Below, one piece after another: positions 1,039-38,280 of a stretch of DNA of 38,352 bases. The stretch's first letter is position 1; each line of letters starts with the position of its first letter. The position numbers and the translations under genes are program-made. The notes under the pieces were generated by a model. That model had not been told where the DNA came from, ran no database searches, and was given only the letters and a program-made list of their open reading frames with translations. Source of the stretch: Candidatus Azambacteria bacterium RIFCSPLOWO2_01_FULL_46_26 (GTDB lineage Bacteria; Patescibacteriota; Minisyncoccia; UBA9936); assembly GCA_001774105.1 (NCBI GenBank), contig MEYT01000036.1, positions 1 through 38,352 on the forward strand. Reading direction: 5' to 3'.

Positions 1039-2142
1039 TTAAACCTCTTCAAATATAAACGGCAGACGATGAAAAATATTTTTCATCTTTTCCCGCCATT
1101 CACTTTTATTTTCGGTCCCGTCGAGCAGATACAGCAGCGCGGCGAACGAAGACAGCAAAGAATTTCCGTCCTGAGGAGTGAAGCAGGTTCCTTCAATCTC
1201 TCTTCCGCCGTTCAAGACCTCAAGCGACGGCAGGCAGACGACGGTTTGATTTAAAATTCTTCCGAAATGCCCCCAGTCGCGTCCGGCGGAAAAGACGACG
1301 TTGTTCATCGTCTGGTGCGTCGTGGCGGTTAAAGGATTTTCCCAGAAACGGGCGGTTGCTTCGGCCAAAGTCAGCGATGTTTTCAGTTTTAAATTGAAAT
1401 CAATCACGTGCATGTACGGGTTGGGCGACTTGTGCGCCCGGCTGTGGATGTCCAGATCGCCACGGACGCTGATCGTCCTCAAGACCGCCATTGCGTCAGC
1501 CGCCTGATGCGAACCAAACTTCGGATCGCTCGGAGTTCCAACCTCAATTCCGATGATTCCTTTCTTTTGGCTGACGTCGCTTACGCGGCGCTGGAGATAA
1601 AAGCGTCCGCTTTCCAGATAATTCGGCCCTTCATGCGCCAGGACCAAAGTTTGCAGAATGGCCAAAATGTTGTGGGTATTGCAGGAAACCACCTGAATGA
1701 ATTTATGCGGCGAGCCGGACCAATAAAGCGCCTTATTATTGATATTGTAAGCGAAAGGGATTCCGAATCCCTTGGCGCCGCCTTGGGCGATAAAACCGCG
1801 GCACTTTTGCGTATGGTGCCGATAAAAATAAAAATCCTCCTTCATTTTCAAAGCCAGATCGTCCTTCGTGCAATCAATGATAACATTGGCCAAAGAAAGA
1901 GCTGTTTCAAAATCATAATCCGGCGTCATGCCGAATTGGACGAACTTTGAAAATTTTTCTTTATACGCGCAGATTTTGGCGCCGCAGGATTGAAAACGCC
2001 GAACCATGCCGACATCTTCAACCCGGGGCGTATTTTTGAGAATTATGATTTCGTCAATTCCGAGCTGGCTTTTAAGCTCCAAAGCGGCTTTTGCCAGCGG
2101 CTGGCCGATCGTTCCGGTGCCGACAATCAGTACTCTTGTCAT
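1039..2142 (-). CDS. Type II (archaeal-type) glyceraldehyde-3-phosphate dehydrogenase-like NAD(P)-dependent oxidoreductase
   Basis: Rossmann GTGTIG, IIDCT, AQGG and catalytic-like VVSCNTH (archaeal GAPDH has VVSCNT; bacterial type I has ASCTTNC). Confidence 0.65.
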   Translation of the reverse strand: MTRVLIVGTGTIGQPLAKAALELKSQLGIDEIIILKNTPRVEDVGMVRRFQSCGAKICAYKEKFSKFVQFGMTPDYDFETALSLANVIIDCTKDDLALKMKEDFYFYRHHTQKCRGFIAQGGAKGFGIPFAYNINNKALYWSGSPHKFIQVVSCNTHNILAILQTLVLAHEGPNYLESGRFYLQRRVSDVSQKKGIIGIEVGTPSDPKFGSHQAADAMAVLRTISVRGDLDIHSRAHKSPNPYMHVIDFNLKLKTSLTLAEATARFWENPLTATTHQTMNNVVFSAGRDWGHFGRILNQTVVCLPSLEVLNGGREIEGTCFTPQDGNSLLSSFAALLYLLDGTENKSEWREKMKNIFHRLPFIFEEV

Positions 2143-10392: not shown

Positions 10393-10477
10393 TAATTTCT
10401 AATTTCTAATTTCTAATTTCTAATTTCTAATTTCTAATAATTTGAAAATTTGGATTTAATTGAAAATTGGAAATTTC
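10393..10477. repeat. Heptamer tandem array (TAATTTC)x6 followed by degenerate inverted copies
   Basis: Six exact units at 10393-10434, then GAAAATT/GGAAATT-like units to about 10477, filling the ftsA-ftsZ spacer. Confidence 0.92.
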
Positions 10478-15417: not shown

Positions 15418-15819
15418 GATTACGCCGCGGTTTTTTTGAAAATCGGAAAAAAATACGGCTTAAAACAATTGCTGAACATAACCGTCCTTCTTGGGGTAAT
15501 CAGCACGATCTGGTATCTCTGGCTTGTCGGCGAGAAAACGGCCATTGCTTTCAGCATCCTCGGCGGCATTGTTTCAATGGTTACGCTTTTGGCGATTCTT
15601 GATCTGGCGGCCCGTTCCTGCCCGAAAATGGCCGAAGGGACTTTTTTCGCTCTCTTAATGTCGGTCTACAACGGCGGAGCAATGGTCTCAAAGGTCCTTG
15701 GCGGTTTTCTTCTTCAATACACCGGCTTGCAAACTCTCATTATTATCAGCGCGGTCTTCACCGCTTTCTGCTGGCTATTGGTTCCTCTGATAAAATTAGA
15801 GGACGAAAATTTACATTAG
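15418..15819 (+). pseudogene. C-terminal fragment of a BT1/folate-biopterin-type MFS transporter
   Basis: Only about four TM helices; ARSCPKMAEGTFFALLMSVYN resembles the BT1 family motif; no ATG or SD, in-frame TAG at 15415-15417. Confidence 0.6.
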
Positions 15820-15834
15820 AGGACGAAAATTTAC
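15795..15834 (+). repeat. Exact 20-bp tandem duplication
   Basis: ATTAGAGGACGAAAATTTAC twice; the second copy supplies the TAG of the MFS fragment. Confidence 0.95.
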
Positions 15835-15838
15835 AAAG

Positions 15839-15863
15839 GCCCGTGTAACAGCGGGCTTTTTTT
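15839..15863 (+). terminator. Intrinsic terminator
   Basis: GCCCG...CGGGC stem followed by T7. Confidence 0.65.
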
Positions 15864-15875
15864 ATAATGAGCGGA

Positions 15876-15961
15876 GGGGACTAAATTTTGAAAATCGTAG
15901 GCGGGGGCGGCCAACCGAGTCTGCGAGGTTGGGGTTAAGCGATTTTCAAAATTTAGTCCCC
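15876..15961. repeat. 86-bp element with perfect 22-bp terminal inverted repeats
   Basis: GGGGACTAAATTTTGAAAATCG (15876-15897) and its reverse complement (15940-15961); internal CCAACC...GGTTGG. Confidence 0.85.
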
Positions 15962-17334: not shown

Positions 17335-17371
17335 TCTGTTTTAAATTTACCATAAACAAGCGGAAATAAGA

Positions 17372-17399
17372 AAAGGGTTCTCTTTTTTGAGAACCCTTT
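17372..17399 (-). terminator. Intrinsic terminator closing the cytochrome block
   Basis: AAAGGGTTCTC-tttttt-GAGAACCCTTT, T-rich downstream on the minus strand. Confidence 0.8.
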
Positions 17400-17411
17400 G
17401 TTGATTTAATT

Positions 17412-17585
17412 TTATCGATCGGCCAAGGCCAGAACGTAGCCCTTTTCAATCAACTCTTGCAAGCGCCATTTCGGCACGTAATCATAAACCAACTTCTTCT
17501 TTTCCTTGTCCCAGCAAAGAACGTGAACGTAACCTTGTTCTTCGCTAAGTTTTTTGACATCCTCAGGCGTAAAAGCTCTTGCCAC
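17412..17585 (-). CDS. 57-aa hypothetical protein (absent from the ORF track)
   Basis: SD AAGGAGG, GTG start; MARAFTPEDVKKLSEEQGYVHVLCWDKEKKKLVYDYVPKWRLQELIEKGYVLALADR; ends just before the terminator. Confidence 0.65.
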   Translation of the reverse strand: MARAFTPEDVKKLSEEQGYVHVLCWDKEKKKLVYDYVPKWRLQELIEKGYVLALADR

Positions 17586-17631
17586 GATTTTCCTCCTTCC
17601 AAACGCCTTCCATCACGCCATCCAATCTTTA

Positions 17632-17814
17632 CTAGTCCCTTATGGCCACATACATTGTCGCGAGAATAATTCCCAGCGCCATTGAGCCGAGTCCGGCAAG
17701 CGCGAACAAAAAAGGAGAATCGCTCGCGGCTCCGCCCAAAACTATCGTTATCGCGCCCCCGTACACCAAAAGTCTTGAAGACGCCGCAAGCGCCGAATGC
17801 CAAAAATTTCTCAT
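17632..17814 (-). CDS. 60-aa small membrane protein (two TM helices)
   Basis: SD AAGGAGG before the ATG; two hydrophobic segments. Confidence 0.65.
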   Translation of the reverse strand: MRNFWHSALAASSRLLVYGGAITIVLGGAASDSPFLFALAGLGSMALGIILATMYVAIRD

Positions 17815-17838
17815 TTGTCATCCTCCTTATAATCCTTG

Positions 17839-17925
17839 TCAGAATCCGAGCAGAGAAAGCGCCAAAAGCAAAAAACAAACGAAGTACAAAAACGCCAGCA
17901 CGGAAAGCTTTTCCCATTTTTCCAT
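17839..17925 (-). CDS. 28-aa single-TM peptide
   Basis: AGGAGAG SD overlapping the cytochrome c stop; MEKWEKLSVLAFLYFVCFLLLALSLLGF. Confidence 0.5.
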   Translation of the reverse strand: MEKWEKLSVLAFLYFVCFLLLALSLLGF

Positions 17926-17933
17926 TTTCTCTC

Positions 17934-18278
17934 CTACTTCTGCAGTTCGCGTATGTAACTTACGATGTCGTGAATCTGATCTTCCGAATAAGTGTCCGCG
18001 TAAGGCGGCATTCCGGTTCCGGGAACTCCTTTGGAAATCTTCTGGAATAACTGCCCGTCGGTCATTTGTTTCACCCGTCCGTCGCGTAAAGACGGAATCA
18101 TCGGCGGCATGCCTTCGCCCTTTGGACGATGACATCCCACACAGCTTTTTCCGTATAAAACCTTTCCGTTCTGTGCGTTGCCGGCGGCATCGGCCAATGT
18201 CGTAAAAATAGTCCCGCAAAAGACAATCAAAACAATACCAATAATAAAAACCGGAATAATCAACAATCTTTCTTTCAT
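17934..18278 (-). CDS. Monoheme class I cytochrome c (c6/cbb3-III-like), exported or membrane anchored
   Basis: GKVLYGKSCVGCH heme motif, distal Met in GMPPY, terminal DIVSYIREL helix; hydrophobic N-terminus; SD GAGGGGG. Confidence 0.93.
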   Translation of the reverse strand: MKERLLIIPVFIIGIVLIVFCGTIFTTLADAAGNAQNGKVLYGKSCVGCHRPKGEGMPPMIPSLRDGRVKQMTDGQLFQKISKGVPGTGMPPYADTYSEDQIHDIVSYIRELQK

Positions 18279-18337
18279 TGTCATCCCCCTCTTTTTTGTT
18301 GTCAAACAACTTGCCGCACCTCTTTAAACTATTAAAG

Positions 18338-18365
18338 ATTATAAGCTAAAACCATAAAAAGTCAA
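18338..18365 (-). promoter_or_regulatory. Sigma70-type promoter of the monoheme cytochrome operon
   Basis: TTGACT-N16-TATAAT. Confidence 0.65.
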
Positions 18366-18405
18366 GGGAAATTTAGATAAAAGCGGATATCCGGGTTTTC
18401 AATGT

Positions 18406-18437
18406 AAAAATAAACCCCGCACAATATTTATGCGGGG
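18406..18437 (-). terminator. Intrinsic terminator after the NHL gene
   Basis: CCCCGCA...TGCGGGG followed by TTTATTTTT on the minus strand. Confidence 0.7.
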
Positions 18438-18458
18438 CAACAATTTACCACTTTTATT

Positions 18459-19835
18459 TTACTTGACTTTTAACCTTCCGTAACCAAACACCGCCACCTT
18501 GCCGTGCGAAATGCTCTTATCGCCAACCTTTTCAATCGCTCCGCTCTGGCTTGTTATCCAGATCAGATATTCAATCTCAAAATCAGGCGCGGCGAACTTC
18601 TGAAAGTATTTAATGTTTTCCGGGCTGGTGTCAACCGCCATATCGCTCGGGCGCTCCAAATTGGGCACTTTCTGGCCGGATGTTTCGTCAAACACCGGTT
18701 CTCCGCCCCAGACGGCGTAAGGAAAATACACCAGGTCTCCTCTTGCGTTATCTTTCGGCAAGATCTTTTCAGAAAATGTTTTAACGTAAGGCAAGCGGAC
18801 AATGCGCGCGCTCTGCCCGACCAAAGTGATGCCGCTGTCCAAACCGTATATGTCACCGTTGGGAGCCGCGGCCACGGCCAACGCGCTGTCAAAGCCCAAA
18901 ATATTGGGGGCACGCACGCCGAATTGATCAATGAATTTGCCCTCGGAATCGAATTTCAGGATGCGGCCGTTCATTTCCTCACTGATATACAGATTATTTT
19001 GGCCGTCAACGTCAACGTCCGACGGCTGATGGAGCAGAATTTTTCCACCCCGCTTCGTTTGAATGTCTTTTGTCAACGCGTCGGCGGAAGACGCGACTTT
19101 TTGCTGCACTTCCTTTTTTTCCAGAACCTTCTCGCTGCCGCCGTTCTCCGCAAATTCTTTCCAAATTTCCCGCGGCATTCCCACAACCCTTAAAATTTCC
19201 CCGGTGTTTTTATCAAGAATAAAAACGCTTTCCGCGGACGGTTTATTTGACAACCTTTGAAGGCCCTGATCAACCGCGTAAATTTTGTCTCCTTTTATCC
19301 TGATTCTTTGGGGAGCAAAAACGCAATTGATTTTTTTCAGAAGATTCATCTTTTCGTCAAAGACCGCGATTTTTTTCGCCGAAGGATACGTCAAATATAA
19401 AAATCTTCCGTCCGTATCCATTCCAAAAGCGTCGCTGAACTCTTTTCTCTTGACTTCTTCGACTTTCGGCGGATTGGAAAGGAAATCAAACACCCAAACG
19501 GTGTCGCCGTCCAGAATGTACGCCCTTCCCTCCATCACCGCGATTGACGTCGGCGAACCGATAAAACGATCGGGTTCTGTTTTTTCACCGAGCAGAATAT
19601 CGAGCCATTTTGGCGTTTTCTTCGCGGGACCCTTCAAGGTAAAAAGCAATTGCCATCTTTGAATCTGATTAAGCGGCATGTCTTTGAATTGCTCCGGCAG
19701 TTTATGGGGATAAAAACGCTCTTCTTCGTCGGCCTCCGCTCCCCCGTTCGGAATGCTTTTATTTTCGGCGAGGGCATTAGAGCTAAAACAGACGAGCAGT
19801 AAAAAAATCGGAACCAATCGTGTCAATCGCGTCAT
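18459..19835 (-). CDS. Secreted NHL-repeat beta-propeller protein
   Basis: Signal peptide ending ALA; repeated blades such as PTSIAV..YILD and PSDVDVDGQNNLYISEEMNGRILKFDSEGKFIDQFG. Confidence 0.85.
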   Translation of the reverse strand: MTRLTRLVPIFLLLVCFSSNALAENKSIPNGGAEADEEERFYPHKLPEQFKDMPLNQIQRWQLLFTLKGPAKKTPKWLDILLGEKTEPDRFIGSPTSIAVMEGRAYILDGDTVWVFDFLSNPPKVEEVKRKEFSDAFGMDTDGRFLYLTYPSAKKIAVFDEKMNLLKKINCVFAPQRIRIKGDKIYAVDQGLQRLSNKPSAESVFILDKNTGEILRVVGMPREIWKEFAENGGSEKVLEKKEVQQKVASSADALTKDIQTKRGGKILLHQPSDVDVDGQNNLYISEEMNGRILKFDSEGKFIDQFGVRAPNILGFDSALAVAAAPNGDIYGLDSGITLVGQSARIVRLPYVKTFSEKILPKDNARGDLVYFPYAVWGGEPVFDETSGQKVPNLERPSDMAVDTSPENIKYFQKFAAPDFEIEYLIWITSQSGAIEKVGDKSISHGKVAVFGYGRLKVK

Positions 19836-19906: not shown

Positions 19907-21982
19907 TTAAAAATGTCTTGCAAGATTAATCCTGAAAAGGAATCCGTCTCTCTCCGTGTTGTTTTCATTGACTTCGTACTTCTCCAAAGCTCTTCTGATA
20001 AAAACATTCACGGACAACTGCCTCACTTCATGAGAAAACGCCAATTGCAAGGCCGAAACGTTTCTTTCGGTTTTGCCTATTGCGGAGGAGTCATAAGTTA
20101 CACCAGCCGTCACTCTCGTCTTGACGGTTTCGAAAATAGCGTTTATTCCGGAATTTAAAAGCCGGATGTCGTTCTGCTCCGTTTTGCGATAGTCAATATC
20201 GCTTCTGCCGCCCTGCCATGTTAAACGCAGTTTTTCATTAACCGGAATCGTGAGCGAGAACCTCGACGTCGCACGGTGAAAAGGGTAATTCAGTTGGGCA
20301 TTATCTTCAAAATCAATGCCGGATGTTATTTCCGCTTTCCGCCACCGCTCAAACGCGTATCTTGAATCCAAGCCGAAACTTCGGTTTTGACCGGAATTAT
20401 CCGATAACTGATTGTAGGCGCTTCCGCTCCCGCCGGTTGTGTTTTGTTCAACGTTTCTTAAACGAAAATACGGCTCAGCCAGTCCGTCAAACAAACTGAT
20501 TCTTGCCGAAACAGTTTGAACGGTATTTCGCGCCAAACCGCGCGGCACAAAATTTTCGTACCCAACAAGCACGGTTTCTCCGTTTAAAATCCGCGTTCCG
20601 GGAATTCTTTCGACATAAGTCGGAGAGCCGAGCTTGTAAATCCGGTAGTCCGCTCCTTCCTGGTAAATTATCGTGCCGGAAATGTCGGTTACCACAACCG
20701 ATTCCGTCGAAATTTCCTGTCCCTCCAGCATAACCGCTTCGTAATCGGAGATTTTATGCATTTCCCCGCTGACAAAAACGTGTTCTTCTCCCGCCCTGAA
20801 CAGATCCGACGATGAAATTTCGTAGCCCAAAGAAAGTTTTCCGTCAAAAGCGGGAAAAATTTGTTTGGCATAGTCAACCCGCGCCAATTTTTCATCCAAG
20901 GTTTGTTCAAAAGCGGAAAATTGTTTTTTTTCGCGCCCAGCTTCCACTTCGGTAAAAAGACTCTCGCCCAATTGATGGGAAAAGCCGCCGCGCGCCTCAT
21001 AAGCGTTTTCTTCTTTTGACAGCCATTCGCTTTCCGCGGCGCCGCCCGAAACTTCCCGGTTTATTTGAGAAGCGCCGAAACTGACAAAGCTGTCCAGTTT
21101 CTGCAATTTGTCGCGAAAAATCCAAAACCGTTGTTCCTGCCTGAGAGCAAAACCGGAATAATCCGAAACGCCGTTCCGCGAATTCAAACTCAAAGACGTC
21201 TTTGTCCTCAAGGTATTGTCCAAAAATTTACCGGCTGCCGTTCCATGGAAATAATGGCTGACGTAATCCGATTCATGCTCTTTTTGGTTTAAAGAAAAGC
21301 GTCTTGAATAGAGCTGTTCGCGAAAATTCAAGTTAACGGAAACTTTTTCCCATTGTTTTTCCGTGTCCGCCTCGAAACTTTTCCGTTCTTCGTGAATGTC
21401 AAAATCATAATCGACAAGCGATTTATTGCCGCGAAAAACATTACTTGCGTCGCTGCCGAAGACGTCAAAACGAAAATTCAAGGGCCAGCCGACAACGGTT
21501 TTTCCCAAATCAAACGTTAAACCGCCGTGTTTTTGGTCGGCCAAATAATCCATGTTAGGCGTATGGCCGATATCCGCGAGGCGTCTTTGAAAAAAGAATG
21601 AACCGCCGTAAGGAGTTTCCTTCAAAAAATATCCGTCAATACCGAAATTTTTCGCGAAATCCGCTCCTTGATATTCCGCGAGGCCCTGACCGAACGCAAT
21701 TCCGCCGCCAACTTTCAGCCCGACAAACCTCTTGTGATAAATGAAAAATCTTTCTTCGATTCTCAACTCTTCATTCATCAGCCGGTACTCGCCGATAATT
21801 TTATTTTTTCCGGAACTAATCTTTTGTAGGTCCTCCCGCAGGGAAAATCCAAGTTCGCCGGCCGGGCGTTCGAAATAAAACGGCCCAAAATTCGCTATCG
21901 GCTTAATTTCGGCGGACTCGCAGATTGGCGTCAGACAAAACAAAATCACGAATCCTATCGCGAACAACAATCTCCTGGTCAT
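19907..21982 (-). CDS. Predicted outer-membrane beta-barrel (porin-like) protein
   Basis: Signal peptide from ATG 21982 (SD AAGGAG); about 690 aa rich in G/F/Y/S/R with alternating amphipathic strands; C-terminal FLFRINLARHF ending in Phe (beta-signal); adjacent to multiheme cytochromes. Confidence 0.72.
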   Translation of the reverse strand: MTRRLLFAIGFVILFCLTPICESAEIKPIANFGPFYFERPAGELGFSLREDLQKISSGKNKIIGEYRLMNEELRIEERFFIYHKRFVGLKVGGGIAFGQGLAEYQGADFAKNFGIDGYFLKETPYGGSFFFQRRLADIGHTPNMDYLADQKHGGLTFDLGKTVVGWPLNFRFDVFGSDASNVFRGNKSLVDYDFDIHEERKSFEADTEKQWEKVSVNLNFREQLYSRRFSLNQKEHESDYVSHYFHGTAAGKFLDNTLRTKTSLSLNSRNGVSDYSGFALRQEQRFWIFRDKLQKLDSFVSFGASQINREVSGGAAESEWLSKEENAYEARGGFSHQLGESLFTEVEAGREKKQFSAFEQTLDEKLARVDYAKQIFPAFDGKLSLGYEISSSDLFRAGEEHVFVSGEMHKISDYEAVMLEGQEISTESVVVTDISGTIIYQEGADYRIYKLGSPTYVERIPGTRILNGETVLVGYENFVPRGLARNTVQTVSARISLFDGLAEPYFRLRNVEQNTTGGSGSAYNQLSDNSGQNRSFGLDSRYAFERWRKAEITSGIDFEDNAQLNYPFHRATSRFSLTIPVNEKLRLTWQGGRSDIDYRKTEQNDIRLLNSGINAIFETVKTRVTAGVTYDSSAIGKTERNVSALQLAFSHEVRQLSVNVFIRRALEKYEVNENNTERDGFLFRINLARHF

Positions 21983-22132
21983 CGCTTTTCTCCTTTTGTA
22001 TTCTATTGTTAAAAAACGTGCGAAATCAATCGCAAATTTTGTCGCGAATACCGAAAAACTGATTCGGAACAAAATTCGAGATTTATTAAGGGCCGGAGAA
22101 TGAAATTTTAATTTCATTCTCCGGCTTCTTTA

Positions 22133-22831
22133 TTATTTTTTCGTCAAATGATGGATGTCATTGTGGCAAGCGACGCATTGCGGAAAATTCCACATCGCCT
22201 GTTTTTGAGGCGTATCGTCCGGAGCCGGTTTGTGGCACTGCATGCAAACTTCTTTTTCCGCCATTTTCAAAAACTTTTCTTCTTTGTTGTGCGGCTCGTG
22301 ACAGGTAAGGCATATTCCGGCCTGATTCAATTCTTTGGCTTTTTCTGCCGGAAAATGACTGAAGTCCTTTTTATCCATGTGACACTGCGTGCAAAGATCA
22401 ATATCGGCCTTTTTTAAAAGTTTTTTTTCTTTTGACCGATGAGGTTCGTGGCAGAAACCGCACATTCCCATTTTAACCGGCCAATGCCTTTCTTCTCCTG
22501 TAAACGATTCCTTGTCGTGGCATTGAAAACATGTTTCAGCCAAAGCCGGTCCTATTGTCATCGGCTTATCGTCTTTGTGGCAAGCGTTGCACCATTGCTG
22601 CTTCCATGGCACGTGCCGGCTCTGCCATTTCTCCTCCTCTTTTTGCTTCATCTTCTTGACAATGTCGGCTATATCTTCGGAAGACGAATGGCTTTTTTCT
22701 TTTTCTTTCCGCAATTCTTCTTCCGCGGGCACGCCGTCAATGAAAAAAGAAAGCCATTTCCTTCCGTTTGTCCCAGCGCATCCGTTCACAATAATAACGA
22801 TCAAAAATATCAAAACCGGCCATTTTTTCAT
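22133..22831 (-). CDS. Heptaheme c-type cytochrome, probable lipoprotein
   Basis: Seven CxxCH motifs (CNACH, CFQCH, CGFCH, CTQCH, CLTCH, CMQCH, CVACH) in paired HxP..CxxCHxPH arrangement; lipobox-like VNGC. Confidence 0.95.
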   Translation of the reverse strand: MKKWPVLIFLIVIIVNGCAGTNGRKWLSFFIDGVPAEEELRKEKEKSHSSSEDIADIVKKMKQKEEEKWQSRHVPWKQQWCNACHKDDKPMTIGPALAETCFQCHDKESFTGEERHWPVKMGMCGFCHEPHRSKEKKLLKKADIDLCTQCHMDKKDFSHFPAEKAKELNQAGICLTCHEPHNKEEKFLKMAEKEVCMQCHKPAPDDTPQKQAMWNFPQCVACHNDIHHLTKK

Positions 22832-23087: not shown

Positions 23088-23762
23088 TTATTGATGCAAA
23101 TCCTGCCATTTTCCTTTATGGCAAGCGCCACAAAGAGTGCCGCCTATTCCGTTGCCGTCATCATCAAACGGAAGAGTGAGGTAATGTCCGTAAGGTCCGC
23201 CGTCGCCTTTGTGCATATAGCCGTGGCAAGTGGCGCAAGTCAGAACATTTTTATTGGGGCCTCCCAAATAAAACGTCTCTTGCATCTCCGAGAGAGGCGC
23301 CATTACATCCTGTAAAACCGAAGGCGTTCGGCTGCCGCGCCGAGAGATTAAGTCGTCGGTAATTTCCACGCCGATGGGATGATGGATGTGCCCGTCCGTC
23401 GGATTAATGTACTTTTCCGACAGATGAGAACTGCTTATCCATCTGGGGTTGCCGTGACACTTAAGACAAAATTCGCCGAGCGGATCAAGTGTCGGAGTGG
23501 ACAATATCGTGTAAGACGTATAATTTTGCCAAACTCCGCTTGCGTCAAATTCGCTTGTCGAACGATAAAGCCAGGGGTATCCCGGGAAAATGGTTTTGCC
23601 GTCCTGAAGTCCCGCGTGCTCCGCGTTGTGACAATTCGCGCAAGTAGTGGGGTTGTAAGCCGGATTATAAGTGTGGCCGGCGTCAGCTTCAGGAACAACC
23701 ATCCAAAGCATTACCGCCGTAAGTATTAAAACCGCCGTCGCGCATGCCATTTTCTTTAGCAT
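23088..23762 (-). CDS. Secreted tetraheme c-type cytochrome
   Basis: Four CxxCH motifs (CANCH, CLKCH, CATCH, CGACH), HHPIG motif, Sec signal ending ADA; SD GGGAGGG. Confidence 0.93.
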   Translation of the reverse strand: MLKKMACATAVLILTAVMLWMVVPEADAGHTYNPAYNPTTCANCHNAEHAGLQDGKTIFPGYPWLYRSTSEFDASGVWQNYTSYTILSTPTLDPLGEFCLKCHGNPRWISSSHLSEKYINPTDGHIHHPIGVEITDDLISRRGSRTPSVLQDVMAPLSEMQETFYLGGPNKNVLTCATCHGYMHKGDGGPYGHYLTLPFDDDGNGIGGTLCGACHKGKWQDLHQ

Positions 23763-23963: not shown

Positions 23964-24407
23964 TCAAGGAATAATCACGACAGGAAACTGTCCTTTGCCG
24001 TCTCCCATCCCGGGGGCGTTTTTGGGCATACCGGGCAGGGCGATGCCCCTGACATTGGGTTTATCCCGCAAAAGCTTTTTAATACTTTCCGCGGGGACGT
24101 GCCCCTCAATAATATAGCCGGAAGATGTTATGGCCGTATGACAGCTTTGCAAATTTTGGGGGATATTGTATTGCTTTTTTACCCCCGCCACGTCATCCGT
24201 ATGGATAACATCCGCGTCAAATCCGTTTTCCCGCAAGTAATCAATGTATGAATGACAGCACCCGCAACTGGGTGAAGCATAAACCGTTATTTTTTCAGCC
24301 GCCATTGCTCTGTCAGCGAACGATTCAAGTTTCCAAAAAACTCCCAGCGAAAGTAACACGCCGGCACAAATAATAAATATGACCCAAATTTTTCCCCTAG
24401 CGCCCAT
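23964..24407 (-). CDS. DUF411 family metal-binding protein
   Basis: SPSCGCC, SCHTA, EGHVPA and GIALPGMP..APGM motifs. Confidence 0.92.
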   Translation of the reverse strand: MGARGKIWVIFIICAGVLLSLGVFWKLESFADRAMAAEKITVYASPSCGCCHSYIDYLRENGFDADVIHTDDVAGVKKQYNIPQNLQSCHTAITSSGYIIEGHVPAESIKKLLRDKPNVRGIALPGMPKNAPGMGDGKGQFPVVIIP

Positions 24408-24426
24408 AAAGCACCCCCTTTTTGTT

Positions 24427-24457
24427 AAAAAACACCGCCACTTTAAGTGGCGGTGTT
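24427..24457 (-). terminator. Near-perfect palindrome, probable leuS terminator
   Basis: AACACCGCCACTT-t-AAGTGGCGGTGTT followed by Ts on the minus strand. Confidence 0.7.
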
Positions 24458-24486
24458 AATATAACATACTTAAAAAATATTGTCAA
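24458..24486 (-). promoter_or_regulatory. Sigma70-type promoter for the DUF411 gene
   Basis: TTGACA-N17-TATATT with TGn extension. Confidence 0.6.
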
Positions 24487-24490
24487 ATTT

Positions 24491-27043
24491 CTATCCGACA
24501 ATATTAATCAATTTTCCGGGAACAAAAATAATTTTCTTGGCTTCTTTTTCCGCAAGCCATGTCTTAACCTTTTCTCGCCCAAGCGCGAGCCGCGCCGCCT
24601 CTTCCCGAGAAATGCCGGCTGGCGCTTCAAACAGGTCGCGCACTTTGCCGTTGATTTGAACAATCAGAGTAAAAGTTTCTTCTTTAATGAATTTTGGATT
24701 AAATTTCGGCCATTTCGCCAAGTGAACGCTTCCCTTTTCATCCCTTCGACCGCGCTCAGGGCTTGCCGATTGACTCCAAAGTTCTTCGGCTATGTGCGGA
24801 GCAAACGGGGCAAGCAATTTAATTACCAATTTCCAATTTTCAATTTCCAATGATGGTTGTTTTTCCAATTCATTCACTAAAATCATTAAAGAGCTGATCG
24901 CGGTATTATACTGCAAATTTTCAATATCTTCCGTAACTTTTTTGATGGTTTTGTGCAATGCCTTATTTAAGTCATCTTGAGGGCTTTGCCCGAAGGATCT
25001 TTTGAGATTCTTCCCCCGCCTTGGCGGGGTCAGAATGACGGAATGAGTTAATTTCCAAATTCGCTCAAGAAACCTTGTAATACCGCGAATTCCTGTGTCC
25101 CTGAAATCTCCTCCCTGCTCAAACGGCCCCAAAAACATCAAGTACATTCTCAACGTGTCCGCTCCGTAGGCGCGAATATATTCGTCCGGATTGACGACAT
25201 TGCCTTTGGATTTTGACATCTTGGCGCCGTCTTTGATTAAAAGACCATGGGCCCGAAATTTCTTGAACGGCTCTTCAAAATGGATAAAACCCAAATCACG
25301 CAGCGCCATCGCGACAAAGCGGACATATAAAAGATGAAGCACGGCATGTTCGGCGCCGCCGATGTACATATCCACGGGCAACCATTTTCGCGCCAAACGT
25401 GAAAATGCTGAATTTTCAATTTTCAATTTCCAATTTTCAGATGCCATAAGATAACCGAGATAATACCAGGAAGAATCCAAAAACGTGTCGCAGACGTCGG
25501 TTTCGCGGCGCGCCCATGATTTGCATTTTGGACAGCGGACTTTAAAAAATTTTTCCACAATTGCCAGAGGTGACTTTTCCGTTCCGGTCGGCCGGAAATC
25601 TTTAATGTGAGGAAGTTTTACCGGCAAATCCTTTTCCGGAACCGCGTGCCAGCCGGGCATATCTTTTCTTTCTCCTCTTCCCTCATGCCTGCAGGTTTCA
25701 CAAAAAATTAAAGGAATGGGCGCTCCCCAATACCTTTGTCTTGAAATCAGCCAATCGCGCAATCTGAAAGTCGTTTTTTTCTCGGCCAAATCTTTTTTCG
25801 CCAGCCATTCCGCTATCGCATTCTTGGCTTTTTGACAAAACATTCCGGTGAATTCGTTTGAGGCAACCAAGTAACCCTCTTCTTCATATGCCCTCTCAAG
25901 AACCGGGCATTTCGGCTCGGGGTAATTCGGGCAAATTACCATCTTTATGGGCAAGTTAAATTTTTTGGCGAACTCAAAGTCCCTTTGGTCATGCGCCGGA
26001 ACGGCCATAATCGCGCCGGTGCCGTATCCGGCCAAAACATAATCGGCGACAAAAATCGGAATTTCTTCTCCGGTTGCCGGATTTGTCGCTTTGATTCCCT
26101 TAATTTCAACGCCGGTTTTTTCCAGCCCTTCGGCAATCCGTTCAGCTTCTGATTTATTTTTCGCTCCCGCGATATATCTTTTGACTTCTTCCCAATTTTC
26201 AATTTGCAATTTTAAATTTTCAATTTTTGAATGTTCCGGCGCTAAAACAACGTAAGTCGCCCCAAAAAGCGTATCAGCTCGTGTGGTAAAAACCTCAATT
26301 GGAAATTGGAAATTGGGAATTGGAAATTTCACTACTGCTCCTTCCGACTTGCTTATCCAATTCCTTTGGGCGACTTTTATTTTTTCCGACCAGTCGATTT
26401 TTTCAAGATTGTTCAAAAGCCGCTCGGCGTAATCGATAATTTTGAAAAACCACTGCTCAAGCTCTTTTTTAACAACCGCCGTCCCACAGCGCTCACATTC
26501 GCCGGCGATGACCTGCTCGTCGGCAAGCACGGTTTTGCACGACGGACACCAATTGACCGCCTGTTTCTTGCGATACGCCAGTCCGCTCTTAAACATCTGG
26601 ACGAAAATCCACTGGGTCCATTTGTAATATTCCGGGTCGTACGTTTCAAGCCGCTCCTCCCACGCGAAACCGTTGCCGATCATCCGAAGCTGGCGGTAAA
26701 AATTTTTCTCGGAGATTTTCGCCTGATCCGCCGGGTGTTTTCCGATTTTTAGGGCGTAATTTTCCGAATGGATTCCGAAGCCGTCAAGGCCGATCGGCTC
26801 AAACACGTCATGCCCCTGCATTCTTTTGAAACGGCCGTAAATATCCGCGCCGACAAAAGCGTACATATTGCCGACATGCAAACCCTCGGCCGAAGGATAC
26901 GGAAACATCATTAAATTATAAAAAGGCCGTTTTAATTTTTTCTTGCCCCGAGCTTGTCGAGGGGTGAAGTTCGGCTCGTACACGCGCTTCTTTTGCCAAA
27001 TCTTCTGCCACTTCTTTTCAATTTTTTGAGGATTATACTTCAT
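24491..27043 (-). CDS. leuS: Leucine--tRNA ligase carrying several repeat-derived in-frame inserts
   Basis: MFPYPSAEGLHVGN (HIGH), FTTRADT editing motif, DWLISRQRYWG, KMSKS and VQINGKVR. Confidence 0.98.
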   Translation of the reverse strand: MKYNPQKIEKKWQKIWQKKRVYEPNFTPRQARGKKKLKRPFYNLMMFPYPSAEGLHVGNMYAFVGADIYGRFKRMQGHDVFEPIGLDGFGIHSENYALKIGKHPADQAKISEKNFYRQLRMIGNGFAWEERLETYDPEYYKWTQWIFVQMFKSGLAYRKKQAVNWCPSCKTVLADEQVIAGECERCGTAVVKKELEQWFFKIIDYAERLLNNLEKIDWSEKIKVAQRNWISKSEGAVVKFPIPNFQFPIEVFTTRADTLFGATYVVLAPEHSKIENLKLQIENWEEVKRYIAGAKNKSEAERIAEGLEKTGVEIKGIKATNPATGEEIPIFVADYVLAGYGTGAIMAVPAHDQRDFEFAKKFNLPIKMVICPNYPEPKCPVLERAYEEEGYLVASNEFTGMFCQKAKNAIAEWLAKKDLAEKKTTFRLRDWLISRQRYWGAPIPLIFCETCRHEGRGERKDMPGWHAVPEKDLPVKLPHIKDFRPTGTEKSPLAIVEKFFKVRCPKCKSWARRETDVCDTFLDSSWYYLGYLMASENWKLKIENSAFSRLARKWLPVDMYIGGAEHAVLHLLYVRFVAMALRDLGFIHFEEPFKKFRAHGLLIKDGAKMSKSKGNVVNPDEYIRAYGADTLRMYLMFLGPFEQGGDFRDTGIRGITRFLERIWKLTHSVILTPPRRGKNLKRSFGQSPQDDLNKALHKTIKKVTEDIENLQYNTAISSLMILVNELEKQPSLEIENWKLVIKLLAPFAPHIAEELWSQSASPERGRRDEKGSVHLAKWPKFNPKFIKEETFTLIVQINGKVRDLFEAPAGISREEAARLALGREKVKTWLAEKEAKKIIFVPGKLINIVG
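24742..24762. repeat. REP-like element in frame in leuS
   Basis: CCCTTCGACCGCGCTCAGGGC (SPERGRR); same family as 12096 and 26945. Confidence 0.7.
24971..25039. repeat. 69-bp composite palindromic element in frame in leuS
   Basis: GTCATCTTGA...AGGATCT-tttg-AGATTCT...TCAGAATGAC, 23 codons (VILTPPRRGKNLKRSFGQSPQDD). Confidence 0.8.
26945..26964. repeat. REP-like element in frame near the leuS N-terminus
   Basis: GCCCCGAGCTTGTCGAGGGG (PRQARG). Confidence 0.7.
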
Positions 27044-37300: not shown

Positions 37301-37365
37301 GGGCCGTTAGAAATTTAATGGCCCGGAATTCTTACAAACTATAATAGATCAATTTCTAACGGCCC
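37301..37365. repeat. 15-bp inverted repeat element abutting tRNA-Arg
   Basis: GGGCCGTTAGAAATT (37301-37315) and AATTTCTAACGGCCC (37351-37365). Confidence 0.8.
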
Positions 37366-37433
37366 TCGTAGTTCAACGGATAGAACAGCACACTCCTAAC
37401 GTGCGGATCGAGGTTCAATTCCTCGCGAGGGCA
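37362..37433 (+). tRNA. tRNA-Arg(CCT)
   Basis: GCCCTCG/CGAGGGC acceptor, GTTC/GAAC D stem, loop CTCCTAA, T loop TTCAATT; CCA not encoded. Confidence 0.93.
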
Positions 37434-37487
37434 CATAGTAAAATGAATAAAAAATTAAAACAGACTCGGTATATCATATAATTACTA

Positions 37488-37516
37488 TTGCACATGGAGG
37501 CTTTTTTGGGTACAAT
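37488..37516 (+). promoter_or_regulatory. Sigma70-type promoter predicting a leaderless transcript
   Basis: TTGCAC-N17-TACAAT, ending 6 nt before the ATG at 37523. Confidence 0.6.
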
Positions 37517-37522
37517 AGTATT

Positions 37523-38215
37523 ATGAATAGAACGAAAATAAAAAAGAAAGTTCGTCAACTTCGTTCTAACGGCAAAACCTACAAAGAAATTCAAAAAAAA
37601 TTAAACTCTCGGATTCCTAAAAGTACTTTATCAAATTGGTGTCGCGGCATTGATCTGCCCAAGAACTATTTTCTAAAGGTAAAAGAGTTAAACAATAGAA
37701 ATTTAGCAAGAGGCAGGCAGACCAGTTTATTAAATCGAAAAAAACAGCAAGAATTATTCTTAAAACGTAAACGAGAAGAGGCGGAAAAAGCTATAACTAA
37801 ATCGTCTTTAAGTGGTTTGCATCTAAAATTAATTCTTGCCACTCTGTATTTAGGTGAAGGCGCTAAATGGAAAGGTCATCGCGGATTAATGCTTGGCAGT
37901 TCTGACCCGATAATTATTCTTCTCTATATTAAACTTCTTAGTAAATGCTATGGAATAAATAGAAATCAGTTAAAATGCAGAATTAGTTACCGCGCAGATC
38001 AAGATATTGAGGCATTAGAAAAATATTGGTCTAAAACCACGGGAATTCATAGAGAAAATTTCTACCAGACCAAACCAGACCCAAGAACAATAGGTAAAAA
38101 AACTTTAAAAAGCCAATATAAAGGCGTTTGCGTAATAACTTGCAAAGGAACAGACATTCAATTAGAACTAGAACAACTTATAAATACTCTGGCCAAGAAA
38201 ATAACGGGCCTGTAG
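37523..38215 (+). CDS. HTH plus LAGLIDADG-like domain protein, putative tRNA-associated endonuclease
   Basis: N-terminal HTH (LRSNGKTYKEI..IPKSTLSNW), LATLYLGEGAK helix and SSDP motif; very basic; visibly more AT-rich than neighbours. Confidence 0.6.
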   Translation: MNRTKIKKKVRQLRSNGKTYKEIQKKLNSRIPKSTLSNWCRGIDLPKNYFLKVKELNNRNLARGRQTSLLNRKKQQELFLKRKREEAEKAITKSSLSGLHLKLILATLYLGEGAKWKGHRGLMLGSSDPIIILLYIKLLSKCYGINRNQLKCRISYRADQDIEALEKYWSKTTGIHRENFYQTKPDPRTIGKKTLKSQYKGVCVITCKGTDIQLELEQLINTLAKKITGL

Positions 38216-38280
38216 CTTAGAGGAAAAGCGTGTGCATGGCATGCACAAGACCGCGGGTTCGAGTCCCGCCAGGTCCACCA
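38206..38280 (+). tRNA. tRNA-Ala(GGC)
   Basis: GGGCCTG/CAGGTCC acceptor with G3:U70, TGTGC-ATGGCAT-GCACA anticodon arm, TTCGAGT T loop, encoded CCA. Confidence 0.97.

Follow-up and report, generated by a model that had tools for sequence, protein, structure and literature searches.

The DNA stretch analysed here (38,352 nt of contig MEYT01000036.1, hereafter the window) carries on its minus strand, at 19907..21982 (stop codon included), a gene for a protein of 691 amino acids (aa) that very probably has an outer-membrane-type beta-barrel fold, as judged from its own sequence and those of its relatives. The protein belongs to a large, unannotated family, and its gene lies directly between those of a heptahaem c-type cytochrome and an NHL-repeat protein. 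We lean, with modest confidence, towards an electron conduit of the porin-cytochrome kind (Mtr/Uet type) in which the barrel forms the sheath; for this reading we infer the barrel fold, the association of the three proteins and the direction of electron flow. A related locus exists in ‘Ca. Parcunitrobacter nitroensis’, which belongs to the candidate phyla radiation (CPR). A large part of bacterial diversity belongs to the CPR, or Patescibacteria, which are regarded as monoderm symbionts that do not respire; the relative represents one of their few respiratory lineages. The cluster would be a module of the porin-cytochrome type whose barrel comes from an unannotated family with a loop domain, in a lineage considered to have no outer membrane.

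Sequence evidence for a membrane barrel

The amphipathic strand pattern described in the initial annotation of this gene was recovered at the family level. In a profile of 95 family sequences, 30.3% of positions passed the threshold for period-2 alternation, compared to 11.5 ± 2.1% in 200 shuffled profiles. The window protein alone contained 22 amphipathic segments versus 14.7 ± 2.7 in shuffles (z 2.7). This single-sequence count is a weak separator of barrels from soluble beta proteins; the same script returned z values of 2.8 for the E. coli BamA barrel, 1.8 for the FhuA barrel, 1.0 for the soluble, beta-rich DegP and 1.2 for the neighbouring NHL protein.

The 95-sequence profile was also cut into same-phase segments at several thresholds, leaving out the inserted domain described below. 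At a threshold of 1.1, 17 strand-like segments were obtained in the N-terminal barrel part (residues 25-394; 20801..21910, minus strand) and 11 in the C-terminal part (residues 487-691; 19910..20524, minus strand), i.e. 28 outside the insert. The connectors between them alternated without exception between long (8-26 residues; 9-26 in the N-terminal part) and short (at most 5 residues), with 15/15 switches in the first part and 9/9 in the second; the corresponding values were 15/15 and 9/10 at a threshold of 1.2, and 15/16 and 9/9 at 1.3. Shuffled profiles gave a mean of 8.2 segments and a switch fraction of 0.38, and at least 17 segments were reached in only 1 of 481. Since this arrangement consists of 14 tight hairpins with long loops between them and both ends on the same side, it corresponds to the canonical outer-membrane topology, and the prediction is a barrel of about 28 antiparallel strands, paired into 14 hairpins, whose N- and C-termini both face the inner side.

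The C-terminus points in part in the same direction. The terminal FRINLARHF noted previously is present and its motif is family-wide: in a set of 131 relatives 600-760 aa long, the last residue is F in 112 and the residue at -3 is R in 115, and positions -5, -7 and -9 are hydrophobic. The resulting family motif is hydrophobic-x-hydrophobic-x-R-x-F, and the window protein ends in ...L-x-R-x-F. In the textbook beta-signal, a terminal Phe or Trp is combined with hydrophobic residues at -3, -5, -7 and -9, the one at -3 being aromatic or hydrophobic; E. coli FhuA ends in ...TATFRF. The BAM-type signal claimed in the initial annotation is thus only partly canonical, as the terminal F and the hydrophobic positions -5, -7 and -9 agree with it and the Arg at -3 does not.

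Seventy relatives were scanned for known families (E <= 0.05). No match was found for 57 of them, six had only unrelated singletons, and seven had weak matches of the outer-membrane-protein or porin type (OMP_b-brl three times, Porin_4, BBP2_2, DUF2490 and DUF481), located on either side of the insert and never inside it. The sole match of this type above its cut-off was that of relative P0076 to BBP2_2 (25.2 bits vs 23.7). DUF2490 and DUF481 are members of the beta-barrel clan.

Several results speak against the barrel assignment, and the Arg at -3 is one of them. The window protein matched no Pfam or NCBIfam family. Three family profiles compared with the PDB (E <= 10) matched no solved structure; among those missed was 6r2q chain B, which we take to be MtrB. 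In addition, hhalign found no relation between the family and E. coli FhuA. The long/short pattern worsened at thresholds of 0.9, 1.0, 1.4 and 1.5 (13/16 and 5/9 switches at 0.9), which makes the strand count threshold-dependent. With alignments A2 and A6 the segmentation was noisier and returned 35 and 36 segments, and it under-called single known barrels (13 segments for FhuA, 9 for BamA); it is not a validated strand counter. The outer-membrane barrel of the initial annotation holds as regards the sequence hallmarks, which are present, and lacks a match of the window protein in curated families or the PDB.

An alternative explanation is that the protein is not a membrane barrel but a beta-rich protein that a monoderm secretes and that is associated with its wall or S-layer, e.g. 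a stacked beta-sandwich or beta-solenoid, whose periodicity and terminal Phe are incidental. The lack of a significant match to any barrel family would agree with this, as would the alternation also seen in soluble beta proteins, which the single-sequence score separates weakly, and periodic surface layers have been described on CPR cells (PMC7906910). Mean-field covariation gave no strand-pairing signal, which is no evidence either way since the 247 sequences (Meff ~212-215) were too shallow and yielded only gap artefacts and then conserved-column artefacts. We consider this alternative very unlikely in view of the 26 regularly alternating connectors, the even number of segments (28), the family-wide R-x-F end, the mature chain without Cys, the recurrent weak porin-family matches on both sides of the insert, and the spread of the family over diderm phyla.

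Gene model and signal peptide

The mechanically called open reading frame (ORF) of the barrel gene spans 19907..22117 on the minus strand and encodes 736 aa. Its start at ATG 22117 was rejected and the start at 21982 (Met46 of the ORF) was preferred, because the sequence AAAGGAG, a ribosome-binding site, lies 8 nt 5' of the latter, because the equivalent Met is the start in 4/4 close homologues (97, 87, 81 and 55% identity), and because the 45 extra upstream codons overlap a 17-bp hairpin at 22090-22127. With this start, the signal peptide proposed earlier is found at residues 1-24 (21911..21982, minus strand), read directly from the sequence as MTRRLLFAIGFVILFCLTPICESA|E. It is only 21-54% identical among the close homologues; the mature part of the closest homologue is 99-100% identical. 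The mature protein contains no Cys.

A conserved domain inserted into the predicted barrel

The two barrel parts are separated by an inserted domain of ~90 aa (residues ~395-486; 20525..20800, minus strand), which is the best-conserved region of the family, with a mean top-residue frequency of 0.45 vs 0.31 in the flanks. In distant relatives, identity is 35-47% in the insert vs 18-30% in the flanks. The internal segment that the initial annotation had singled out as a possible soluble domain, VVVTDISGTIIYQEGADYRIY, lies within it. If the long/short alternation is read as topology, the 95-residue insert falls in the ninth long, outward loop, and we therefore predict that it occupies extracellular loop 9.

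The insert alone matched neither Pfam nor the PDB; its best PDB match, designed ‘Pizza’ propellers (E 0.56), was taken as chance. It is probably an Ig-like beta-sandwich, which we regard as a lead and not as a result. One match of the exhaustive search for the barrel family, P0046, is a 1245-aa Baseplate_J protein with five copies of an insert-like stretch, and the copy at 1058-1141 matches the PHROG ‘major tail protein with Ig-like domain’. Four relatives weakly match a phage tail-tube model at positions ~87-190 (E 1e-6 to 9e-3). A small insert-related domain is thus found on a phage/tail-like baseplate protein as well as on the barrel family.

A large family without an annotation

The word-indexed protein search returned only four close homologues, all without a product name, and a profile search of the same database with alignment A1 returned only five proteins; a protein search of plasmid records gave nothing useful for the barrel. 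The exhaustive HMMER search yielded 571 cluster representatives (clusters at 50% identity) at E <= 1e-3, 70 at <= 1e-10 and 11 at <= 1e-30, mostly of 640-700 aa. For most distant matches, the best-scoring stretch was query residues ~325-520, i.e. the insert region. The homology is nevertheless whole-length across the family, because the profile of the 13-sequence window subfamily aligned with that of a 39-sequence distant clade over 598 columns by hhalign (probability 100%, E 1.1e-40).

The distant clade comprised 133 matches at E <= 1e-10. None of the 120 listed has a precomputed Pfam domain, and among the matches listed every given product name is ‘hypothetical protein’ and the nine organism names are Bacteroidota/Bacteroidales (7), Chlorobi (1) and ‘bacterium’ (1). 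The nearest Atlas clusters (score 0.98) hold hypothetical proteins of 663-690 aa, most commonly from Pseudomonadota, Thermodesulfobacteriota and Planctomycetota; a cluster at a score of 0.88-0.89 with Porin_4 on 33% of its members is a lead only. Judged by these searches, this is a family of ~650-700-aa barrel-like proteins that neither Pfam nor NCBIfam covers with a model; its members occur in Bacteroidota, Chlorobi and further diderm phyla.

A FastTree phylogeny of 74 rows places the window protein in a 6-row group together with P0002-P0005 and P0007 (support 100), nested in a 15-row subfamily (support 100) whose other members have a very different amino-acid make-up. The R-x-F end is conserved throughout the window's clade, in six full-length proteins with identities as low as 39%. 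The codon usage of the barrel gene is like that of its neighbours, and the GC content, third-position GC content (GC3) and codon usage of the whole module are in line with the flanking housekeeping genes. The ‘retained cargo’ option raised in the initial annotation, like a decaying relic, is therefore unlikely, since the clade members keep the R-x-F end and the codon usage matches that of the neighbours. Recent horizontal transfer of the module was rejected because its composition matches the neighbouring genes and the window's clade is deep and monophyletic.

The gene cluster and its counterpart in ‘Ca. Parcunitrobacter nitroensis’

The genes around the barrel lie on one strand in the order DUF411 protein, tetrahaem cytochrome, heptahaem cytochrome, barrel, NHL protein. 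A scan of GTDB species representatives with two peptide patterns, which finds close relatives only, matched 24 stretches; two of them encode a barrel relative and together form one locus (L001) on LBUF02000001.1, the respiratory scaffold of Parcubacteria group bacterium GW2011_GWA2_38_13b, i.e. ‘Ca. Parcunitrobacter nitroensis’. The order there is a decahaem lipoprotein-like cytochrome, barrel homologue, NHL protein, tetrahaem cytochrome, Rieske protein, cytochrome b and a 9-haem cytochrome. Identities between the window and this locus are 38% for the multihaem cytochromes, 39% for the barrels, 47% for the NHL proteins and 52% for the tetrahaem cytochromes. The order cytochrome-barrel-NHL is kept while the surrounding genes differ entirely.

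The heptaheme cytochrome named as a neighbour in the initial annotation is encoded directly upstream of the barrel (22133..22831, minus strand; 232 aa, 7 CXXCH motifs) and is MtrA/DmsE-like. It contains doubled-CXXCH domains (E 8e-27) and matches the DmsE/MtrA family TIGR03508 below the cut-off (E 8e-19); a second match to this family, with E 2.8e-27, was below the cut-off as well. Among solved structures, 6r2q chain A is its best relative (E 3e-10), and the decahaem cytochrome of the Parcunitrobacter locus matches that chain too (1.1e-12). This chain carries CXXCH motifs in the printed alignment, though it is labelled ‘Cystathionine beta-synthase’; we take 6R2Q to be the MtrCAB complex of Shewanella baltica and its chain A to be MtrA. 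A conserved FFIDGVP motif is common to the heptahaem and decahaem cytochromes. Cys18 of the heptahaem protein is invariant and follows a hydrophobic N-terminus, and the lipobox is not canonical; the cytochrome is a probable lipoprotein.

The secreted NHL-repeat beta-propeller protein (458 aa; 18459..19835, minus strand) is encoded 71 nt downstream of the barrel. The secreted or membrane-anchored tetrahaem cytochrome (224 aa, 4 CXXCH motifs; 23088..23762, minus strand) and the DUF411 (CopG-like) protein with an N-terminal membrane anchor (23964..24407, minus strand) lie further upstream. No counterpart of the DUF411 gene was found in the Parcunitrobacter locus, and its membership of the module is therefore doubtful.

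A perfect 17-bp hairpin lies between the heptahaem stop and the barrel start (22090..22127, no strand assigned), possibly acting as a terminator, attenuator or mRNA stabiliser; the 166-nt region around it (21975-22140) has a folding energy of -48.2 kcal/mol (z -6.2). By eye, the equivalent spacer in the Parcunitrobacter locus has no obvious hairpin counterpart. The hairpin scan found a terminator-like hairpin after the NHL gene (18414..18438, minus strand), and similar ones lie 3' of the DUF411 and tetrahaem genes. Because hairpins end these three genes and another splits the heptahaem and barrel genes, the barrel and NHL genes probably form one transcription unit, and the cytochromes may be transcribed separately. 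The flanking genes of the window are housekeeping genes (leuS, murD, lepB, hisS, ftsA, ftsZ, nrd, comEC and metG).

The envelope of the host

From synteny with the Parcunitrobacter locus, we infer that the host is a Parcunitrobacter-like CPR bacterium; the window contains no rRNA or ribosomal marker genes beyond S21. The initial annotation had presented the barrel as a paradox in a monoderm. The paradox is upheld in so far as the same cluster occurs in a CPR relative without lpxC and kdsA, and it is weakened in that the monoderm state of the window's host follows from synteny only.

The simplest way out is that the host, perhaps together with the whole Parcunitrobacter-like lineage, is an ordinary diderm with an outer membrane free of lipopolysaccharide (LPS) and a BamA-type insertase. 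There would then be no paradox, and this explanation overlaps with the conduit that we favour. It would fit a barrel family found otherwise in diderm phyla and an R-x-F end kept in 6/6 members of the window's clade, as if an insertase still reads it, and the synteny-based placement of the window leaves it room. The accessible text of the Parcunitrobacter genome study (PMC5220378, Castelle et al. 2017) calls the envelope ‘unclear’ and reports no BamA search. The same text assigns the organism to the Parcubacteria on the basis of 16S, ribosomal proteins and gyrA on the respiratory scaffold, and describes a 0.884-Mb genome without fatty-acid synthesis and without the LPS genes lpxC and kdsA. In cryogenic transmission electron microscopy, ultrasmall CPR cells that were attached to Gram-negative hosts had no outer membrane (PMC7906910), and the rare CPR bacteria that have been described are reported to be monoderm (PMC8871954). 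No diderm marker was present in the 38-kb window or the 22-kb Parcunitrobacter locus, which is a small sample, and E. coli BamA, Skp, LpxA, LpxB and LpxD used as queries gave nothing significant in either. We regard an ordinary diderm as rather unlikely.

One candidate marker in the Parcunitrobacter locus, a PD40 protein resembling TolB, was rejected (164 bits vs a cut-off of 343). This PD40 beta-propeller precedes a 1109-aa M1/M28/PDZ peptidase within L001 2322-6755, and given its position and its sub-threshold TolB score a role as partner of the peptidase is more likely than one in Tol-Pal.

A proposed porin-cytochrome conduit

In the conduit that we propose, Sec would export a protein of an outer-membrane-type beta-barrel family, with ~28 antiparallel strands and a conserved Ig-like domain on a long outward loop. 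The MtrA/DmsE-like heptahaem cytochrome encoded just upstream would sit in or at the barrel, and the NHL propeller encoded just downstream would scaffold or cap the complex on the outside. The tetrahaem cytochrome would connect the conduit to the membrane respiratory chain (bc complex); its gene adjoins the Rieske and cytochrome b genes in the Parcunitrobacter locus. NHL proteins accompany outer cytochrome clusters in Tenderia (bioRxiv 10.1101/2022.05.06.490989) and Desulfovibrio ferrophilus. The layer that holds the barrel could be an unrecognised, LPS-free outer layer of the cell itself, the outer membrane of a diderm host, or another layer.

Points that tell against the conduit come from several sides. 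A strong hairpin and promoter-like sites lie between the heptahaem and barrel genes, and the conservation of the cluster rests on two genomes. The heptahaem protein has a lipoprotein-like Cys, which to our knowledge MtrA does not. To these must be added the absence of lpxC and kdsA in the relative, the CPR cells seen without an outer membrane and the monoderm state of the CPR bacteria described so far.

The protein could also be a true barrel that sheathes no cytochrome, i.e. a general porin, exporter or adhesin whose Ig-like loop domain is the working part, the gene order being merely inherited. The insert is indeed the most conserved part of the protein, the large family extends to phyla not known for extracellular electron transfer (e.g. 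the Bacteroidota clade), its one above-cut-off match is a generic ‘putative beta-barrel porin’ family, and the hairpin separates the barrel gene from the cytochrome gene. We nevertheless judge this decidedly unlikely, as the three-gene cluster has stayed contiguous at 38-47% identity in entirely different surroundings, the MtrA/DmsE type, to which the upstream cytochrome belongs, is known to function within a barrel of roughly these dimensions (PMC7096707), and the Uet cluster, too, combines genes for tetrahaem, barrel, NHL and multihaem proteins (bioRxiv 10.1101/2022.05.06.490989).

A more radical version of the porin-cytochrome conduit is that a CPR epibiont without an outer membrane exports the barrel, whose R-x-F end an insertase could still read, and the MtrA-like cytochrome into the outer membrane of its diderm host, forming an inter-cellular electron conduit. 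We rate this as highly improbable. If true, a symbiont with a 0.9-Mb genome would respire through its host or drain electrons from it, and a barrel working in another cell's membrane would be a new kind of symbiont-host coupling. If instead the lineage has an envelope layer able to hold a barrel, this would bear on the timing and mode of outer-membrane loss in the Terrabacteria. A confirmed conduit would mean that these tiny cells move electrons across an envelope layer not yet described.

Other features of the window

Several observations concern the rest of the window. A perfect (TAATTTC) x 6.6 tandem repeat lies between ftsA and ftsZ (10393-10438), and related repeats with a 7-nt period occur inside the leuS coding sequence (24821-24851, 25411-25439, 26193-26227 and 26297-26328). 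Three of these four leuS sites encode ‘IENWKL’-like stretches (LeuRS residues ~274-289, 533-548 and 732-742). A low-GC ORF at 37523-38215 (plus strand), within 37362-38280 (GC 0.339 vs ~0.46 elsewhere), has a weak helix-turn-helix match. It lies between tRNA-Arg(CCT) and tRNA-Ala(GGC), overlaps the start of the latter and may be a small mobile or foreign insertion.

A 367-aa ORF at 1039-2142 (minus strand) resembles archaeal type II glyceraldehyde-3-phosphate dehydrogenase (NF003251, E 1.7e-23, 83 bits vs a cut-off of 185) and has no Pfam match; such a resemblance to the archaeal type is unusual for a bacterium. The region 15436-15961 contains, on the plus strand, a 127-aa fragment of a major facilitator superfamily transporter (Pfam MFS_1, E 1.3e-10), which looks like a gene remnant. 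Two perfect repeats come after it, a 20-nt x 2 tandem repeat (15795-15835) and, just before murD, a 22-nt inverted repeat (15876-15897 / 15940-15961). The 1.1 kb from murD to the NHL gene (17335-18458) holds only overlapping ORFs (155-187 aa) without a family match, and several promoter-like sites lie there on the minus strand. At 24399-24514 (minus strand), at the leuS 3' end and the DUF411 5' region, an Enterococcus small-RNA model was matched weakly, probably by chance (RF02634, 32.7 bits vs a gathering threshold of 100, E 1.3e-4).

Comparison with known systems

Our literature search, which worked by word matching with subscription journals outside its scope, retrieved no paper that describes a cluster of barrel and cytochrome genes from a CPR genome. 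The genome of the Parcunitrobacter locus came up by name in one paper, only as a row of a BLAST table. The FeGenie paper describes porin-cytochrome operons in Zixibacteria, Tectomicrobia, Dadabacteria and Handelsmanbacteria, none of them CPR, and strings of the Parcunitrobacter genome were absent from all of the 12 files covered out of the 14 in its supplement. In the Parcunitrobacter study, the accessible text treats the decahaem and tetrahaem proteins as electron carriers only, and ‘porin’, ‘outer membrane’, ‘beta-barrel’ and ‘NHL’ have no occurrence in the main text and three small supplement files (PMC5220378). The scaffold described there has the same four genes at 38-52% identity, next to Rieske/cytochrome b and a 9-haem HAO-like cytochrome, whereas the window cluster sits among housekeeping genes without a bc complex.

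Among monoderms, the Gram-positive Thermincola carries out extracellular electron transfer with membrane-anchored and wall-embedded multihaem cytochromes, but without a barrel protein (PMC7096707); the window cluster keeps one, and this is what does not fit the monoderm model. The PCC3 and PCC4 clusters of iron oxidisers likewise place a predicted porin gene beside multihaem cytochromes and were likewise proposed from neighbourhood alone (PMC5566968). The PCC3 cytochromes have 21-35 or more haems, compared to 7 in the window, and the conserved five-helix inner-membrane protein of PCC3/PCC4 has no counterpart in the window (PMC5566968).

The resemblance is closer to MtrAB(C), MtoAB and PioAB of Shewanella, Sideroxydans and Rhodopseudomonas, in which the gene of a DmsE/MtrA-type multihaem cytochrome is followed directly by that of a ~700-aa barrel, and the best solved relative of the window cytochrome is 6r2q chain A. 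MtrB is a predicted 28-strand porin with MtrA embedded in it (PMC7096707), or has 26 strands according to the Uet preprint (bioRxiv 10.1101/2022.05.06.490989). Unlike in these systems, the window barrel has no detectable sequence relation to the MtrB/PioB family models or to 6r2q chain B and carries a conserved loop domain of ~90 aa, and its cluster includes an NHL propeller. The window cytochrome differs from MtrA in its 7 haems (10 in the Parcunitrobacter relative) and its lipoprotein-like Cys. No MtrC-like surface decahaem cytochrome is encoded in the window, where the only match to an MtrC/MtrF domain is borderline (30.6 bits vs a cut-off of 30).

The Uet cluster (uetA-J) of ‘Ca. Tenderia electrophaga’ and some Gallionella similarly co-locates a tetrahaem cytochrome (UetA), a predicted 28-strand barrel (UetC), NHL propellers (UetH/I) and a doubled-CXXCH multihaem cytochrome (UetJ) (bioRxiv 10.1101/2022.05.06.490989; PMC10734462). 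It differs in having genes for a trihaem c7 cytochrome, a cupredoxin and a peptidyl-prolyl isomerase that the window lacks (UetB and UetD-G are not matched) and in a multihaem cytochrome of 11 haems instead of 7; the window barrel is set beside UetC by description only. The hosts of Uet are ordinary Gammaproteobacteria and Betaproteobacteria, unlike the presumed CPR host of the window. As far as gene sequences can place it, the cluster is closest to MtrAB/MtoAB/PioAB by gene order and cytochrome type and closest to Uet by gene content, and it is a member of neither.

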